Of a stretch of 64,000 bases of DNA, positions 36,761 to 62,890 are shown piece after piece (the stretch's first letter is position 1; each line of letters opens with the position of its first letter). The translations under genes and the position numbers were made by a program. Below the pieces are notes generated by a model. It worked only from the letters and a program-made list of their open reading frames with translations. It was not told the DNA's origin and did no database searches. Source of the stretch: Vulcanimicrobiota bacterium (lineage in GTDB: Bacteria > Vulcanimicrobiota > Vulcanimicrobiia > Vulcanimicrobiales > Vulcanimicrobiaceae); the NCBI GenBank assembly GCA_963833095.1, contig CAWHWQ010000001.1, positions 800,001 through 864,000 on the forward strand, written 5' to 3'.

Positions 36761-37137
36761 CCGCGTTCATTCGTCTGCGGATGAGCGCGCACGACGCGCA
36801 TTACGGCGGAAACCTCGTCGACGGCGCGCGAATGCTCGCCCTCTTCGGCGACGTCGCGACCGAGCTGCTTATTCGTCTCGACGGCGACGAGGGGCTGTTT
36901 GTCGCCTACGACAAGGTGGAATTTCTCGCACCGGTCTACGCCGGCGACTACATCGAAGCGCATGGCCGCATCACCGGCGTCGGCAACACCTCGCGCGCAA
37001 TGGAATTCGAAGCGCGTAAAGTGATCGCGGCACGAAGCGACGTGGGCGCGAGCGCCGCGGACTATTTGAGCGAGCCGATAGTCGTTTGCCGCGCGAGCGG
37101 CACCTGCGTCACGCCGAAAGATAAAAAACGCAAATAA
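36730..37137 (+). CDS. kal: 3-aminobutyryl-CoA ammonia-lyase-like hotdog-fold protein
   Basis: [17 protein letters not shown]...FGDVATEL...DGDEGLF..Y..VEFLAPV.AGD; GAGGA before the GTG start. Confidence 0.85.
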
Positions 37138-37139
37138 CC

Positions 37140-37376
37140 CTTGTCATCCCGAGCGTAGGGAACGTAGTGACCGTAGTCGAGGGACCACAACTACCTACTG
37201 CCCTCGAAGACGCTCGTCGCATCACATCCTGTGCCGCTCCTGCTGCGCGAGTTTTGCGCCACAACCAAAGGAAGTTCGCATCCTGCGAATGGCGCAAAAC
37301 TTCGAGCCTTCTCCGGCCGCAGGTAGTTGTGCTTCCCTCGACTACGGCGCTTCGCGCCTACGCTCGGGATGACAAG
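37140..37376. repeat. 237-bp palindromic (REP/RPE/MITE-like) element
   Basis: Perfect 20-bp terminal inverted repeat CTTGTCATCCCGAGCGTAGG plus inner matching blocks CCGTAGTCGAGGGA and CACAACTACCT. Confidence 0.9.
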
Positions 37377-37377
37377 A

Positions 37378-38768
37378 TCAAACCAGACGTGCGTGCGTTT
37401 TCTTCTTCCAGAAGAACTCGTAGTATGTAAACTGCGCGCACAGCATGAAGCAATAGTACGCCGGGTATCCGGCCCACACTCCGGGAAGACCGAAATGTTT
37501 CATGCAGAAATACGCCACGGGGACCTCGATCGCCCAGATGCCGACCAGGCCGTTGAGCGTGGGAACGAGCACCGTACCGCTACTGCGCATCACGCCGCTG
37601 ATAATCGCACTGTTTCCGAAGATCAAATACGACCAGAGCGTAATCATCAGCAGTTCATGCGCGATTTGTACCGTCGGCGGGTCGGTGATAAAGAGCTCCA
37701 ACAGCGGAGTAGCGAGCAGATAGCAAAGTGTCACTAGAATTCCGCCGACCGCATAGTTCAGGGTGACCGCCGAACGAATGACGCTGCCCAACTTATCCTC
37801 GCGGCGCGCGCCAATGCACTGCGCGCCAAAAATCGACGCGGCAATGCCGATGGAGATCGCGGGGAACTGCACGTAGTTGACGATCTGGTTGACCGCACCG
37901 TATGCGGCGGTTGCGTGGGGGCCATAGTGATTCACGAAGCTGATGATTGCGATCTCGGCAAGTGAGACCATGATGACCTGAATGCCCGTCGCGACGCCGA
38001 TCCGAATGACATTCCACAAGATATGCGGGTCGATGATCATGTCGCGGGCCATCTCGAGGTCGAATTTCAGCGGGCTCTTTCGACGCGCGAGCAAGACCAA
38101 GAGTCCGACAAGGCCGACGAAGTTCGCGATAATGCCCGAAACCGCGGCACTGACGACGCCGAGATGCGGCAGACCGAACCATCCTTGGATGAATGCCGGC
38201 GTAAAGAAGACCGCGAGCACGGAGCTTACGATCAGGAAGTAGAGCGGTGTCTGCGAGTCGCCGACACCGCGCAGAAACGTCGTATAGACCAGATAGGGAA
38301 AGATGATCGGCGCCGTGAGGAAGATCACGCGCGTGTAGTGGTCGGAATCCTGCAGAATGGCCGCAGGCGTGCCGAGTACCTGCAACATCCATGGCGAAAT
38401 CAGCGGGCCAACGATCGCGATGGCAATCGCAAAGAGCATCGTCGCGCCCAGAACGGTGCCCGCAATTTTCTTCACCTTGTGTTCGTCGCGCGCACCGAAG
38501 GCCTGGCCGATCAGGACGGTGCTGCCGCTGGCGATGCCGATCAGAAACGAGAACAGCAAAAAGACGACGGGGAATACTGCCGACACCGCGGCCAACGCGT
38601 TGACACCGATCATCCGTCCGAGAAAGATCGCGGCGAACGTCTGCGAAGCCGATTGCAAAATATTGCTGATCATCAGCGGCACAAGAAGATCAACAAAAGC
38701 TGCCACATCGGCTTGCTCTCGTCGAAAATGTTGACGCCCATGCGCCGGGCCGGGGTCGCTTGTGCCAT
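37378..38768 (-). CDS. MATE family efflux transporter (frameshift near 38683)
   Basis: About 12 TMs, LIGQAFGA, LRGVGDS.TPL; N-terminus MAQATPARRMGVNIFDESKPMW lies in another frame. Confidence 0.9.
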
Positions 38769-58947: not shown

Positions 58948-59007
58948 CCTTGTCATCCCGAGCGTAGCGAAGCGTAGCGCTACGCGCCTACGCTCAGGAG
59001 GACAAGG
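58948..59007. repeat. 60-bp palindromic copy of the repeat family overlapping the tgt and ileS stop codons
   Basis: Arms CCTTGTCATCCCGAGCGTAG and CTACGCTCAGGAGGACAAGG (2 mismatches). Confidence 0.88.
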
Positions 59008-61811
59008 AATTTACGACCGCGGCGCAGTCGGCGCAGATCGACGGATGCGCCGGGTCGGTGCCAAGCTCGCGGAATTTCCAGCAGCGCGCGCATTTTTCGC
59101 CATGGCGCTCGAGATGAGATCGCAAGCCCGGGATCGTCACCGCCGGAGTTCGTGGCTCAAGGTCAAGCTGCGATGACAACCAGCGCGTCACGCAAGTTGT
59201 CGCCTAATGCGTACGCAAGCGCGTCGTAGTGCGCTGCAGGCGCCGCAAGCTCGACACGTACATCGAAATCGCGGATCTTGGAGACGCGGCAACGTCGCGA
59301 GCGCAGATCGCGAAGCGAGTCTGCCCACAGATCTCGCAGGCTCGCCATATCGGTTTCTCGACGCCGACGCCTGTGGGCGCCGAATGCCGAATCGAAGACG
59401 CTACGTTCGTCGCCGCGTAAGGCCTCGGGAATTTCTTGCCAGGCTTCTTCTGCGGTAAATGAAAGAATCGGGGCGATCGCGGTTAGCATCCGCTTGAGCG
59501 CATAGAGCAGCGCCGACTGCGCGCTGCGCCGGCGGTGGCTGTTCTCGGCCAGCGAATAGAGCGGGTCCTTGAGCGCGTCGAAATAGAAGCTCGACATTGC
59601 GCTTTCGAATGCCACTATGCGCAGATATGCATCATGGATTGCGAAGCCCTCGTAGAGCGCCTTCACGTCGGCTACGAAGGTGTCGGTGATCGCGCAGGCG
59701 AGGCGATCGAGCGGCTCGAGCTCTTCGCGCGGGAGAACGTCTTGCGCCCCGAGGTCGTCGAGATTCCCAAGCATGAAGCGAATGCGGTTGCGGATGTTGC
59801 GATAGACGCGGCCGACTTGCTCGACCACATTGGGCCCGAAGCGCACGTCGTCGACGAACTCAACCGAGGCAGACCACAAGCGCAGGACGTCCGCGCCCCA
59901 TTTGTTCATCGCCTCAACCGCGTCGATGCCGGTTCCGCGCGATTTGGACATCGGGCGGCCTTGCTCGTCGTTGACCCAGCCGTTCTTGACCACACGTTTG
60001 TAGGGCGCTGCGCCCTTGATCGCAACGCCGGTCAGAAGCGAACTCCGGAACCAGCCGCGGAACTGATCCCCGCCCTCCAAATACATGTCGCACGGCCACG
60101 GCACGCCGTCGTGCCCGAGCACGGCTAGATGCGTCACCCCCGATTCGAACCAGATGTCGACGATATTCTTCTCTTTGTCGAACGCGGTGCCGCGACACTT
60201 CGGGCAGTGGAAGCCGGCCGGCAGATAGGTTTGCACCGGGTCGACCCACCATGATCCGGCGCCTACCTCGGCAAAGCGTTTCGCTACGTTGCGCGCGACG
60301 TGCGGATCGAGAATCGATTCATTGCAGGCGGTGCAGATAATCGCGGGAATCGGCGTGCCCCAAATGCGCTGACGCGAGACGCACCATTCCGGATGCGTCT
60401 CGATCATCTGGCGCTGACGCACGCGGCCCCATTCCGGGACATAGTCGACGCCGTCAACAGCTTCGATCGCGCGAGCGCGCAACCGGTTTTGATCCATCGC
60501 GATGAACCATTGCGCCGTGGCGCGAAAAATCACCGGATTGTGACAACGCCAGCAGTGCGGATACGAGTGCTCGTAATCTTGCGCTGCAAACAGCGCGCCG
60601 CTGGAGCGCAAATCCTCGACGATCTGCTTGTTGGCTTTGAAGATGAACTGCCCGGCGTAGGGACCGGCTTCTTGGGTGAAGTGACCGGCAGCATCGACCG
60701 GATTGAGAATCGGCAATCCGTATTTCACGCCGGTCTCGAAGTCGTCGGCGCCGTGCCCCGGTGCCGTATGCACCGCGCCCGTTCCCGTTTCGAGATCGAC
60801 GTAATCGGCGAGCACGACCAGCGAGTCGCGATCCATGAACGGATGACGCACGCTGGTTCCGTCGAGGCGTTCGCCCGGAACGCTCGCGAGCAACTCCGCG
60901 TCGACGAATCGTTCGCCGAGCGCCTTGGGCGCAAGCGCGGTCGCCAGAATCAGTAGCTCATCGCCAAGGCGATACAGTCCATAGGTCGCGTCGGCCCGCA
61001 GCGCGATCGCGACGTTGGCCGGCAGCGTCCACGGCGTCGTCGTCCAAATTAAGATCGAGGTTTCCTCGGTCCCTCGACTACGCGGCTCCGCCGCTACGCT
61101 CGGGATGACAAAGGCGGACAGGATCTTTTCGCGCTGTTCATCATTTGCCGCGAAGCGGACGTAGACCGAGGGCGAGACTTTCGGCTCGTATTCGATCTCG
61201 GCTTCGGCTAGCGCCGTCTCGTCGTGCACGCACCACAGCGTCGAACGCAAGCCCTTGTACAACTGCTCTTTCTCCGCCAGATCCGCGAGCGCGTTGACGA
61301 TCGTGGCTTCGAACGACGGGTCGATCGTTCGATACGGACGGTCGAAATGCCCGAAGACGCCCATGCGTTGACGCGCATCGCTTTGGCGCCCAAGCCAAAA
61401 GAGCGCGCGCTCCTTGCACTTCTCGCGTAGTTCCAGCGGATCGATCCCGTGAAAATCCTTGATGCCCAAGAACTTGAGCGTCTCGAGTTCGATCGGCAAG
61501 CCGTGCATATCCCAGCCGGGAACGAAATCCGCCCACTTCCCGTCAAGCAACGCGATCTTCACGAACACGTCCTTCAACACCATGTTCAGGAAGTGGCCCA
61601 TGTGCAGCTCGCCGTTTGCATACGGCGGCCCGTCGTGCAGAATCCAGGGTCCGTTCTTCCGATTGGCATCCAGGCGGCGCTGGTAGATGCCTTGCGTGTG
61701 CCACCACGCGATGCGATCAGGCTCGCGCTTGGGCAGCTCCGCCTTCATCGGAAAGGCGGTCTTGGGTAAACGCAAGGTCTCGCGATAATCGCGTTCGACA
61801 GTTTCGCTCAT
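58994..61811 (-). CDS. ileS: Isoleucine--tRNA ligase (frameshift(s) near the C-terminus)
   Basis: [35 protein letters not shown]-terminal KCARCW...C.DC zinc finger in ORF 58994..59191. Confidence 0.97.
61068..61111 (-). repeat. Single arm of the repeat family inserted in frame in ileS
   Basis: TTGTCATCCCGAGCGTAG-CGGCGGAGCCG-CGTAGTCGAGGGACC matches 37141-37186 apart from the central loop. Confidence 0.9.
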
Positions 61812-62890
61812 GGGTCGCGCATCAGTTCGCCGAGCACGTCGAAATTTCGTGCTGCGGCGGCGCGAATCTCGTCGACTTTGTCTCGCAGCTCTGCCGCGAG
61901 CATGTCGCGCTGCGACATCAGTCGGTCGACAAGCGCATCCACGGCCGGATCCGAGGGCACCGGCTTGCCCGGCGTCCAGAGTGGATCCAGCGGATAGCCC
62001 AGGTCGTCGCAGAGGGCCGCAACCTTGGGGTCGTAGGGGATGGCGAGAAACGGTACGCCGAAACGCGCCGCCAAGATCAGCGCGTGCAGGCGCATGCCGA
62101 TCACAACGCGCGCACCGCGCAGAATCGCCGCCGCTCGTACGAGCGGACACTCCGGCAAGAGCATCGGCGCACTCTTGCACAAACGAATGATCGTGGTCGA
62201 AACTTCGGCATCGCTCACTCCGCCCAGGGGGAGGAATGCCACGCGCACGCCGTGCGTCTGCGCCAGCCGATCGACCGCACGGGCGATCGCGTGTTGACCG
62301 TCTTTGAGATTCGATACCTTTCGTACGCTTACCACGGCGTACGGCTCGCTTCCGAGTCCCTCCGACGAAAGATCGACGTCTTCTATCGGGGCGTCGTACA
62401 AGAAGACCGGATCGGCCGTTTGCTCGACCGGCGTTTCGGGAACCAGCGATTGTAACAAGCGTAGAGAGCGCGCGTCGCGCACCGTTGCGCAATCGAGACC
62501 GCGGCAAAAGCTGCGCACCACAACTCGACCGAGCAAGTCGAGCGGACCGATCGATTGCGCGAAAATCATCGATTTGCGCCGCTGGCGAATCGCTTCACGC
62601 AAGATCCCGGCATAGTACACGATGCTGCGCGCGCTGGTCGCCGTCTGCAAGAGGCCGCCGCCACCCGAGAGCACGACGTCAGCGCGCCCAATCGCTTCGC
62701 GCACGCTGCGCATGCTCCAGCGCGGCGTCGCCTCGACGCCATACTCCTTCGCCGTTGCCTGCGGCGTTGCCGAGAGGACGTCGAGCTGCATCGAGGGATA
62801 GCGCGCCCGCAATTGCGTCACGATCACCTCGAGCAACGCCTCGTCGCCGAGATTACCGAACCCGTAATAGCCCGAAAGCAATACACGCAC
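61808..62890 (-). CDS. csaB: Polysaccharide pyruvyl transferase CsaB
   Basis: LSGYYGFGNLGDEA, SGGGGLLQ, AQSIGPL, TVRD..S, GMRLHALI, YDPKV. Confidence 0.92.
   Translation of the reverse strand: MRVLLSGYYGFGNLGDEALLEVIVTQLRARYPSMQLDVLSATPQATAKEYGVEATPRWSMRSVREAIGRADVVLSGGGGLLQTATSARSIVYYAGILREAIRQRRKSMIFAQSIGPLDLLGRVVVRSFCRGLDCATVRDARSLRLLQSLVPETPVEQTADPVFLYDAPIEDVDLSSEGLGSEPYAVVSVRKVSNLKDGQHAIARAVDRLAQTHGVRVAFLPLGGVSDAEVSTTIIRLCKSAPMLLPECPLVRAAAILRGARVVIGMRLHALILAARFGVPFLAIPYDPKVAALCDDLGYPLDPLWTPGKPVPSDPAVDALVDRLMSQRDMLAAELRDKVDEIRAAAARNFDVLGELMRDP

Follow-up and report, generated by a model that had tools for sequence, protein, structure and literature searches.

Can a short interspersed DNA repeat lodge in the gene of an essential enzyme and be read into the protein while the reading frame stays open? 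The question is raised by a 64,000-nt stretch of DNA (the window; G000:C1:800001-864000) from the genome of an Eremiobacterota (Vulcanimicrobiota) soil bacterium, a metagenome-assembled genome (MAG) of 2.8 Mb in eight contigs, with 62% GC, which we refer to as G000. There, 45 nt that recur elsewhere in the genome lie in frame within ileS, the gene for isoleucyl-tRNA synthetase (IleRS). Our analysis makes it very probable that this ileS unit is a translated, tolerated solo copy of a selfish repeat found at the level of the genus. Genomes, genera, contigs and loci are named below by our own handles.

A repeat unit is in frame in ileS

The unit, its layout and its host gene are as follows.

61067..61111, minus strand: solo repeat unit of 45 nt, in frame in ileS, encoding (F) plus a 14-residue VIPS... 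peptide
61067..61111, minus strand: layout of the unit, with left arm TTGTCATCCCGAGCGTAG, inner hairpin and right arm CGTAGTCGAGGGACC
61082..61094, minus strand: inner mini-hairpin (predicted fold), with a 5-bp stem GCGGC/GCCGC, a GGA loop and GTAG on both sides
58994..61781, minus strand: ileS, bacterial type 1 IleRS, with Met at 61781 (from Pfam, PDB and comparison with G002)

In the IleRS translation, the WTTTPWT motif of the editing domain starts eight residues after the 14-residue repeat peptide. An initial annotation of this DNA had placed a repeat arm in frame in ileS, ahead of the CP1 editing motif, and both the translation and the repeat copies agree with this. Two copies related to the ileS unit are present in the window, at 37334-37375 (88% identical) and 58964-59005. 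As for the description of the unit as a palindrome arm, its repeat nature stands and the clean palindrome does not, since the left and right arms are mutually non-complementary and surround a 5-bp hairpin with a GNA loop, which only the inner segment forms. This inner variant is found in two of the 90 units of G000, those in ileS and in an OdhA-like gene. An exceptional stability of the hairpin is not supported, the folding energy of the ileS unit being no better than that of shuffled sequences, with a z score of 0.0 as DNA and -0.59 as RNA.

Three of the six reading frames of the unit are stop-free, one in the sense direction (VIPS) and two in antisense. The two other sense frames, which read LSSRA and CHPER, contain TAG stops arising from the GTAG tags, while the third antisense frame is closed by TGA.

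The insert is also found in short reads. Record 14 of run X2, a short-read contig, spans 60975-61300 with zero differences and includes flanks on both sides, which shows that the insert is not an assembly artefact; the X2 run may be the sample from which the window was assembled. Metagenome contigs that contain only the repeat diverge from the window at 61067-61070 and at 61111, which sets the borders of the unit within 1-2 nt of those given earlier. Read depth in the metagenome contigs is two- to fourfold higher over the unit than over its flanks, as expected for a multi-copy sequence. The four runs with Logan contigs that match the window, none of them listed as an RNA run, all belong to a single study, and the source sample may be among them.

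The insert is derived within the genus

We compared the loop that carries the unit, measured as the DNA between the conserved YVRF and WTTTPW motifs, in 26 orthologs covering the whole 460-aa query. Fourteen are from the same genus (g1), seven from other genera of the family and five from a second family; four further g1 genomes with ileS fragments only were excluded. The loop is 78-84 nt long in nine insert-free orthologs (G009, G017, G007, G010, G006, G014, G024, G023 and G022) and 99-144 nt long in nine orthologs with an insert, eight of which are recognisably repeat-derived. The ninth, in G003, is an unrelated insert of 39 nt. The repeat-derived inserts are confined to repeat-bearing genomes: seven of the 14 full-length g1 orthologs have one, as does G020 of genus g4. 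Conversely, the VIPS peptide is in none of the 13 full-length orthologs from repeat-free genomes (G018, G019 and G021-G029), where the loop measures 81-96 nt. The insertion is therefore lineage-specific, as the initial annotation had anticipated, and the peptide was not met in orthologs from genomes lacking the repeat.

The inserts fall into different reading frames. Those in the VIPS frame (G000, G002, G001 and G004) start directly after a Phe codon, the one in G004 consisting of four tandem half-units, in frame. Those in the CHPER-type frame (G015, G008, G020 and, in degenerate form, G005) have other start points: RHPE follows FA or FAAS, and CHPER follows AREDGSP in genus g4. Every IleRS insert has a length that is a multiple of 3, and no stop is present in any of the open reading frames (ORFs).

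A maximum-likelihood tree built from the flanking protein sequence groups G000 and G002 as sisters (93/90) and places the insert-free G009 as sister to both (98/96), the trio grouping with four further insert-free species. The insert-free loops begin with G-V/I-S, as in repeat-free genera. Since they retain this feature of other genera, they are ancestral rather than products of deletion, and the insert of G000 and G002 is derived. As far as can be judged from these alignments, the variety of frames and start points points to at least three separate insertion events at the ileS loop.

The alternative that best survives this comparison, put forward as a rival for the VIPS group of inserts, is a single old insertion in the ancestor of the genus that was later reshaped by gene conversion, changes in hairpin length, tandem growth, decay, deletion and allele exchange. 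The unit does start at the identical nucleotide, after the Phe codon, in all four VIPS species; G000 and G002 have the insert site in common and differ there by a 6-nt change in hairpin length; and the backbone of the genus tree has eight open forks. What tells against a single event is that the IleRS inserts are spread over two reading frames and begin at three or more positions, and that deletion would not restore the ancestral residues seen in the insert-free loops around G000 and G002. We regard this history as possible but rather doubtful.

Homing by resemblance between the native loop and the unit was considered and rejected. In 15 of the 17 insert-free orthologs, the score of the loop against the unit is within the background of the same gene. 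The scores are slightly above background in G022 (12, against a maximum of 9) and G014 (11, against a maximum of 10), the loops of which might hold old repeat remnants.

The repeat is also in frame in genes of other enzymes

Ten long frames cross a unit in G000, six of which are supported by Pfam: IleRS, DnaE, an OdhA-like E2-E1 fusion, a PMT_2 glycosyltransferase, a HIRAN-DEAD helicase (with a degenerate copy) and a BNR/sortilin protein. These six ORFs hold seven of the 90 units, and most units are intergenic. Two cases outside ileS are the following.

G000:C1:139647-139871 (L032/L157), outside the window: complete dnaE composite of 234 nt (78 aa in translation), placed between the domains for NTPase and fingers
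G000:C2:266725-266763 (L036/L182): unit in the OdhA-like gene, in the linker ahead of the E3-binding domain, encoding the same 14-residue peptide as in IleRS

We compared the corresponding DnaE segment in 15 species of the genus, in all of which the ORF is open. Seven species have 53 aa there, whereas G000 and G012 have 130 aa. G002 (113 aa) holds another composite, which is read in the CHPER frame; the segment measures 135 aa in G015, and G004 has a collapsed unit (69 aa). The segments of G006 (56 aa, a gain of 3 aa) and G008 (63 aa, with a remnant) are footprints of older inserts. These footprints and the collapsed G004 form resemble the decay of older inserts, a point in favour of the single-insertion history. 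The OdhA-like protein, composed of two lipoyl domains, an E3-binding domain, an acyltransferase domain and an E1 domain, has VIPSV... in its linker in eight of 16 aligned sequences, at two positions. The last of the 15, G013, a member of genus g1 in which the 16-mer of the left arm has zero matches and the ileS match is fragmented, has a DnaE segment of 102 aa with an unrelated long palindrome in the loop, and may carry a different repeat family.

The solo intragenic copies in IleRS, DnaE, OdhA, PMT_2, the helicase and BNR are all in the sense orientation, though these events are not independent. In ileS and dnaE alike, the unit overlaps a native YTTG at its 5' end.

Units also supply protein ends. 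At the 3' end of ileS, the following feature is found.

58950..59007, no strand assigned: two repeat arms in inverted orientation, between ileS and the upstream gene, whose 3' ends converge

The zinc-finger frame of IleRS takes its final codons (LSS) and its TGA stop from the right arm (..NSLSS-stop). In G006 (L008), IleRS ends within a unit as ...NSLSSRA-stop; the enzymes of G002 and G010 end in native sequence. The companion peptides that had been proposed as products of the repeat are therefore present in proteins of the group, LSSRA-stop ending IleRS in G006 and CHPER being read in IleRS of G020 and DnaE of G002.

The unit belongs to a large family confined to two genera

The 16-mer of the left arm, which ends in the GTAG that immediately precedes the hairpin, has 95 exact matches in G000 (64 forward and 31 reverse), and a reversed-pattern control has none. 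A search for full units, in which one mismatch was permitted per arm, gave 101 matches, corresponding to 90 non-overlapping units. The arms are conserved over 15-18 nt and solo units measure 26-66 nt, the length varying with the inner segment. This segment is 1 nt long in eight of the 90 units, which have no hairpin; 11 nt in 29 units, with a GCGNAGC core and a 2-bp stem; 17 nt in 23 units, mostly with a 5-bp stem and a GNA loop; and 30-32 nt in 14 units, with stems of up to 14 bp. Across units, the stem at this position is thus of 0, 2, 5 or 11-14 bp, its sequence varying through compensatory substitutions around a constant loop and between constant GTAGs.

The 90 units comprise 56 solo units and 17 convergent pairs (34 units), with no divergent pair; 13 are tandem neighbours. 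The convergent pairs, with their left arms outward, measure 89-373 nt, mostly with a spacing of 150-260 nt. When 11 pairs of 180-280 nt were aligned, they fell into two classes according to their internal sequence, and both orientations were seen for each class. Since paired units share both their ends and their internal sequence, units double as terminal inverted repeats of composites that resemble MITEs (miniature transposable elements with inverted repeats). One such composite is in the window.

37143..37373, no strand assigned: MITE-like composite of ~230 nt, with inverted units, left arms outward and a conserved interior; intergenic and of the same class as the dnaE composite

Rfam gives no match in the window at gathering scores, and none at E<=1 for the composite region 37050-37450.

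The host of the repeat is an Eremiobacterota MAG from soil, and the repeat-bearing genomes are of 2.8-3.4 Mb and 62% GC. Among the 41 genomes searched, which include G036 (flagged as unpublished), the 16-mer is present in 16 of the 17 genomes of genus g1, in 9 to 232 copies (the highest number being that of G008), and in G020, the one genome of genus g4, in 50 copies. It is absent from all 23 other genomes, which represent six more genera of the family together with another family and, at class level, a third one. Exact 34-mer matches are in records named Candidatus Eremiobacteraeota or Vulcanimicrobiota, some of them Candidatus Aquilonibacter. No evidence of a spread across phyla was obtained, since four MAGs titled Acidoferrum or Acidiferrales are G004, G005, G008 and G016, with identical match positions and counts. 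We note that MAG titles (Candidatus Acidoferrum or Acidiferrales) disagree with a placement in g1 at loci L040, L043, L061, L076, L077, L091, L109 and L116. Within the literature searched, no paper mentions the repeat, its peptide or Eremiobacterota repeats, in line with the earlier remark that the family was not recognised as described.

Several other repeat arrangements were seen. Tandem arrays of left halves are present in G000 at C1:575934-576200 and C4:196704-197078, with periods of 24 and 30 nt and ~10 copies, a complete unit coming last. A second, related repeat family has a left arm that ends in ...CCTGAGGTGC and gives peptides of the RHPEV...EPRR type; it is also found in frame, in the ileS loop of G015 (L010) and G005 (L009) and in a second OdhA linker of G009, G010 and G004, and copies of its arm adjoin units in G000, for example at C4:197078 and C7:28141. 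GC skew is negative on nearly all contigs of G000, and solo units in skew-negative regions number 33 on the plus strand and 20 on the minus strand, from which we draw no conclusion about strand bias.

A tolerated selfish repeat best explains the ileS unit

Alongside what is directly observed, namely the family, the in-frame site, the absence of the peptide from repeat-free orthologs, the ancestral loop of the sister species and the recurrence in IleRS, DnaE and OdhA, we propose the following sequence of events. The 45 nt at 61067-61111 are one solo member of a family of short interspersed repeats at the level of the genus, whose units also act as terminal inverted repeats of ~90-370-nt MITE-like composites. 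The unit would have entered the part of ileS encoding a variable loop, which connects a lineage-specific helix with the CP1 editing domain at its first strand, and would have replaced about 4-5 native codons for a net gain of nine residues. By landing in the sole reliably stop-free sense frame, it would have kept the gene open and been read into IleRS, where the translated unit is predicted to form a surface loop that is flexible. As selfish DNA that is tolerated and has no function of its own, it most likely persists in the style of Rickettsia palindromic elements (RPEs) and intragenic repetitive extragenic palindromes (REPs). The unit would thus be presumed neutral, and would presumably have arrived by transposition through an enzyme.

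The points that weigh against this explanation concern the insertion event, the protein and the integrity of the gene. At the ileS site, native codons have been lost, so that the insert is no clean addition and the event does not lend itself to a base-by-base reconstruction. Mobility is something that we infer from copy number and distribution. No direct repeat that might represent a target-site duplication was seen at the ileS or dnaE junctions. REP-associated tyrosine transposases (RAYTs, Y1; PF01797), the obvious candidate mobilisers, were rejected because none is present in the six genomes searched (G000, which is 80.7% complete, and G002, G006, G008, G001 and G020, which are 93-96% complete); as a positive control, the same profile matched in six of 14 reference genomes. 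Other transposase domains are patchy among five repeat-bearing genomes, with TnpB (Cas12f1-like_TNB) in three, IS110 (Transposase_20) in two and DDE_Tnp_1, over the cut-off, in two. All three were discarded as mobilisers since none tracks the repeat, G008, with its 232 16-mers, being without TnpB and IS110. As for an autonomous parent, no convergent pair 400-5000 nt apart brackets a recognisable transposase gene, and a 318-aa ORF at C1:576863-577816 has no Pfam match.

These observations bear on a further idea, that the family represents a new type of mobile module in which an adjustable GTAG-flanked hairpin sits between fixed arms and which, without a RAYT or any other recognisable transposase, inserts in a target- and strand-specific manner. 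Its mechanism, and not only the scarcity of permissive sites, would then drive the recolonisation of the same loops in essential enzymes. Specificity for target and strand is suggested by the position of the 5' end on YTTG in ileS and dnaE, and by the sense orientation of all solo intragenic copies (~15 species) despite the open antisense frames. We consider a new module of this kind unlikely.

Regarding the protein, translation is read from the frame: the inserts are all multiples of 3 and stop-free, from which we infer that they are translated. For the first 460 residues, AlphaFold gave, from the alignment of 26 sequences, a model of low overall quality, with a mean predicted local distance difference test (pLDDT) value of 57.9, which likewise speaks against too firm a reading; the blocks of the editing domain reach 80-94. 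It shows a helix at 214-223, a coil at 224-239, in which pLDDT is below 50 at 230-237, and a strand at 240-247 (SILIWTTT), the blocks flanking the coil having values of 93 and 85. The peptide thus falls in a coil modelled with low confidence, whereas the helix before it and the strand after it are confident. Moreover, the alignment with the best solved relative, Staphylococcus aureus IleRS (PDB 1ffy, E 3.9e-114), has a gap opposite the repeat stretch, and no other part of the ortholog alignment forms a run of non-consensus columns. Together, the model and the alignments fit a location of the repeat peptide in a flexible, permissive loop.

The place of this loop beside the editing site, with the insert eight residues ahead of the Thr-rich WTTTPWT, is what could make one think that the peptide has been co-opted to modulate editing, tRNA binding or contact with a partner and is kept by selection. 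The presence of inserts at conserved places in three essential enzymes, in several species, would suit such a role. Yet the sequence, length and frame of the peptide vary among species and close relatives do without it; it is a low-confidence coil in the model; and the repeat DNA is mostly intergenic, with the few units in Pfam-supported ORFs noted above. Co-option is therefore highly improbable.

As for the gene, the host of the unit has everything that defines a bacterial type 1 IleRS: core motifs, editing motif, anticodon domain and zinc motif. It lies in a long ORF at 59163-62507 of the window, on the minus strand, matches tRNA-synt_1 (E 9e-106) and Anticodon_1 (E 8e-17) in Pfam, and contains the HMGH, WTTTPWT and MSKS motifs, the C-terminal zinc motif being present but out of frame. 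This last feature counts against the proposed explanation. The main frame of ileS ends at 59163-59165 through a 1-nt frameshift near 59174, so that the protein reads ...VVIAA-stop instead of the ...VVSQLDL... of the intact 924-aa IleRS of G002, while the zinc-binding C-terminal part (CARCW...CADC) is in another frame that runs to a stop at 58994-58996. In addition, the window copy has an indel-rich patch in the region 59105-59380 relative to the G002 ortholog, and could be damaged.

Could ileS then be a decaying pseudogene, with the repeat as one of several lesions? The frameshift ahead of the zinc-binding C-terminus and the indel-rich patch would agree with this, and with G000 80.7% complete a second ileS could be missing. 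Against it, G000 has a single strong IleRS match, and the repeat-carrying orthologs are open over 919-1279 aa in all species, that of G002 being intact. The base that causes the shift, 59174, is missing in two short-read Logan contigs, X1 record 1 and X3 record 16, each of a different run. These two also lack nine other bases within 59105-59213, where their depth is low, at 4-6, and have 78 other letters in place of 59277-59377. Long-read assemblies are prone to single-base indels, and the eight-contig assembly was probably made from long reads. On this sequence evidence, the frameshift is probably a long-read assembly error or a strain variant, and not a sign of gene death. We thus hold a pseudogene to be very unlikely.

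Removal of the element by RNA excision or protein splicing, so that it would never be part of the mature enzyme, is scarcely credible: it has no direct support beyond the hairpin-forming character of the unit, there is no Rfam match, the inserts in IleRS (nine), DnaE and OdhA are all multiples of 3 and stop-free, which would be needless if they were excised from RNA, and 45 nt is far too short for an intein or known self-splicing intron.

Discussion

A repeat that very probably persists as a translated and tolerated passenger in IleRS is a new repeat family in a new phylum, and the kind of phenomenon is already known. What is added to current knowledge is the repeated colonisation of the same loops in three essential enzymes across one genus. 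This extends the record of selfish DNA inside genes from Rickettsia, an obligate intracellular group, and a few REP-bearing proteobacteria to a free-living and barely studied soil phylum. The process can be followed within one genus, where versions, frames, tandem expansions and decayed remnants are found side by side in the loops of IleRS, DnaE and OdhA-like enzymes. These loops provide a natural map of permissive insertion sites in the three enzymes, and the closely related genomes offer a system in which to study how an element enters, grows and is lost. There is also a practical warning for annotation, since Eremiobacterota proteins will contain repeat-derived segments such as VIPSV...SRGT, CHPER... 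and C-terminal ...LSSRA.

Comparison with known systems

The comparison below draws on two papers, a review (PMC10969869) and a study of REPs (PMC3733652). RPEs (Ogata et al. 2000, via PMC10969869) are described there as high-copy elements in frame in unrelated housekeeping genes, and as selfish DNA tolerated in surface loops; they measure about 100-150 bp and nearly half of them are intragenic (PMC10969869). Like RPEs so described, the present element is a non-coding high-copy repeat that is also found in frame in housekeeping ORFs, where it gives a conserved peptide and leaves the host ORF intact. Unlike them, it is hosted by free-living soil Eremiobacterota, its solo units are of 26-66 nt as against about 100-150 bp, its arms are non-complementary and surround a variable GTAG-flanked hairpin, and about seven of 90 units, rather than nearly half, are in Pfam-supported ORFs. 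The likeness is one of behaviour, in that the element appears to work like an RPE, and we do not claim membership in that sequence family. With in-frame copies in IleRS, DnaE, OdhA-like, PMT_2, helicase and BNR ORFs, the analogy drawn in the initial annotation, that of an RPE-like, peptide-donating family in a different lineage, is borne out. The lineage is indeed different, being Eremiobacterota, although not the first outside Rickettsia, as intragenic REPs of the GTAG/CGTC type have already been described (PMC3733652).

The element also has much in common with bacterial MITEs, among which ERIC, BOX and Anabaena MITEs make in-frame fusions according to the review (PMC10969869). It is a multi-copy, short, non-coding element bounded by terminal inverted repeats. 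Its 90-373-nt composites have such ends and no coding capacity of their own, and one of them is read as 78 aa in dnaE. It differs from MITEs, as they are characterised in that source, in that neither a target-site duplication nor an autonomous parent with the same ends was found, and in that solo terminal units are about as frequent as composites (56 solo against 34 paired units).

GTAG REPs offer a third point of reference. In the work of Di Nocera, De Gregorio & Rocco (2013; PMC3733652), a REP is defined as a palindromic unit of 20-40 bp whose stem measures 6-13 bp or, in one family, 5 bp, dimers being spaced by 1-100 bp. Intragenic REPs are reported there in genes for replication, repair and tRNA synthetases and in dnaE of R. 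conorii; GTAG supplies TAG stops to neighbouring ORFs; and different REPs occupy one recB site in two Xanthomonas species (PMC3733652). Measured against this account, the present units differ in having a hairpin embedded between conserved arms of 15-18 nt and a second GTAG after the hairpin; eight of 90 units are without a hairpin and 29 have a stem of only 2 bp (the ileS unit has 5 bp); the spacing of dimers is mostly 150-260 nt, with a conserved interior; and no RAYT is present in the six genomes searched. Tag, copy number and dimers fit the GTAG REP superfamily, and the association with a RAYT does not, so that membership is partly supported. The likenesses to GTAG REPs are many: a GTAG that immediately precedes, on the 5' side, a short stem-loop whose loop is of 3 nt; subfamilies with compensatory stem changes; single units, inverted dimers and tandem clusters, mostly between convergent genes; TAG stops that come from GTAG; copies in frame; and different versions at one site in related species. 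The behaviour of the repeat resembles that of intragenic GTAG REPs even more closely than that of RPEs.

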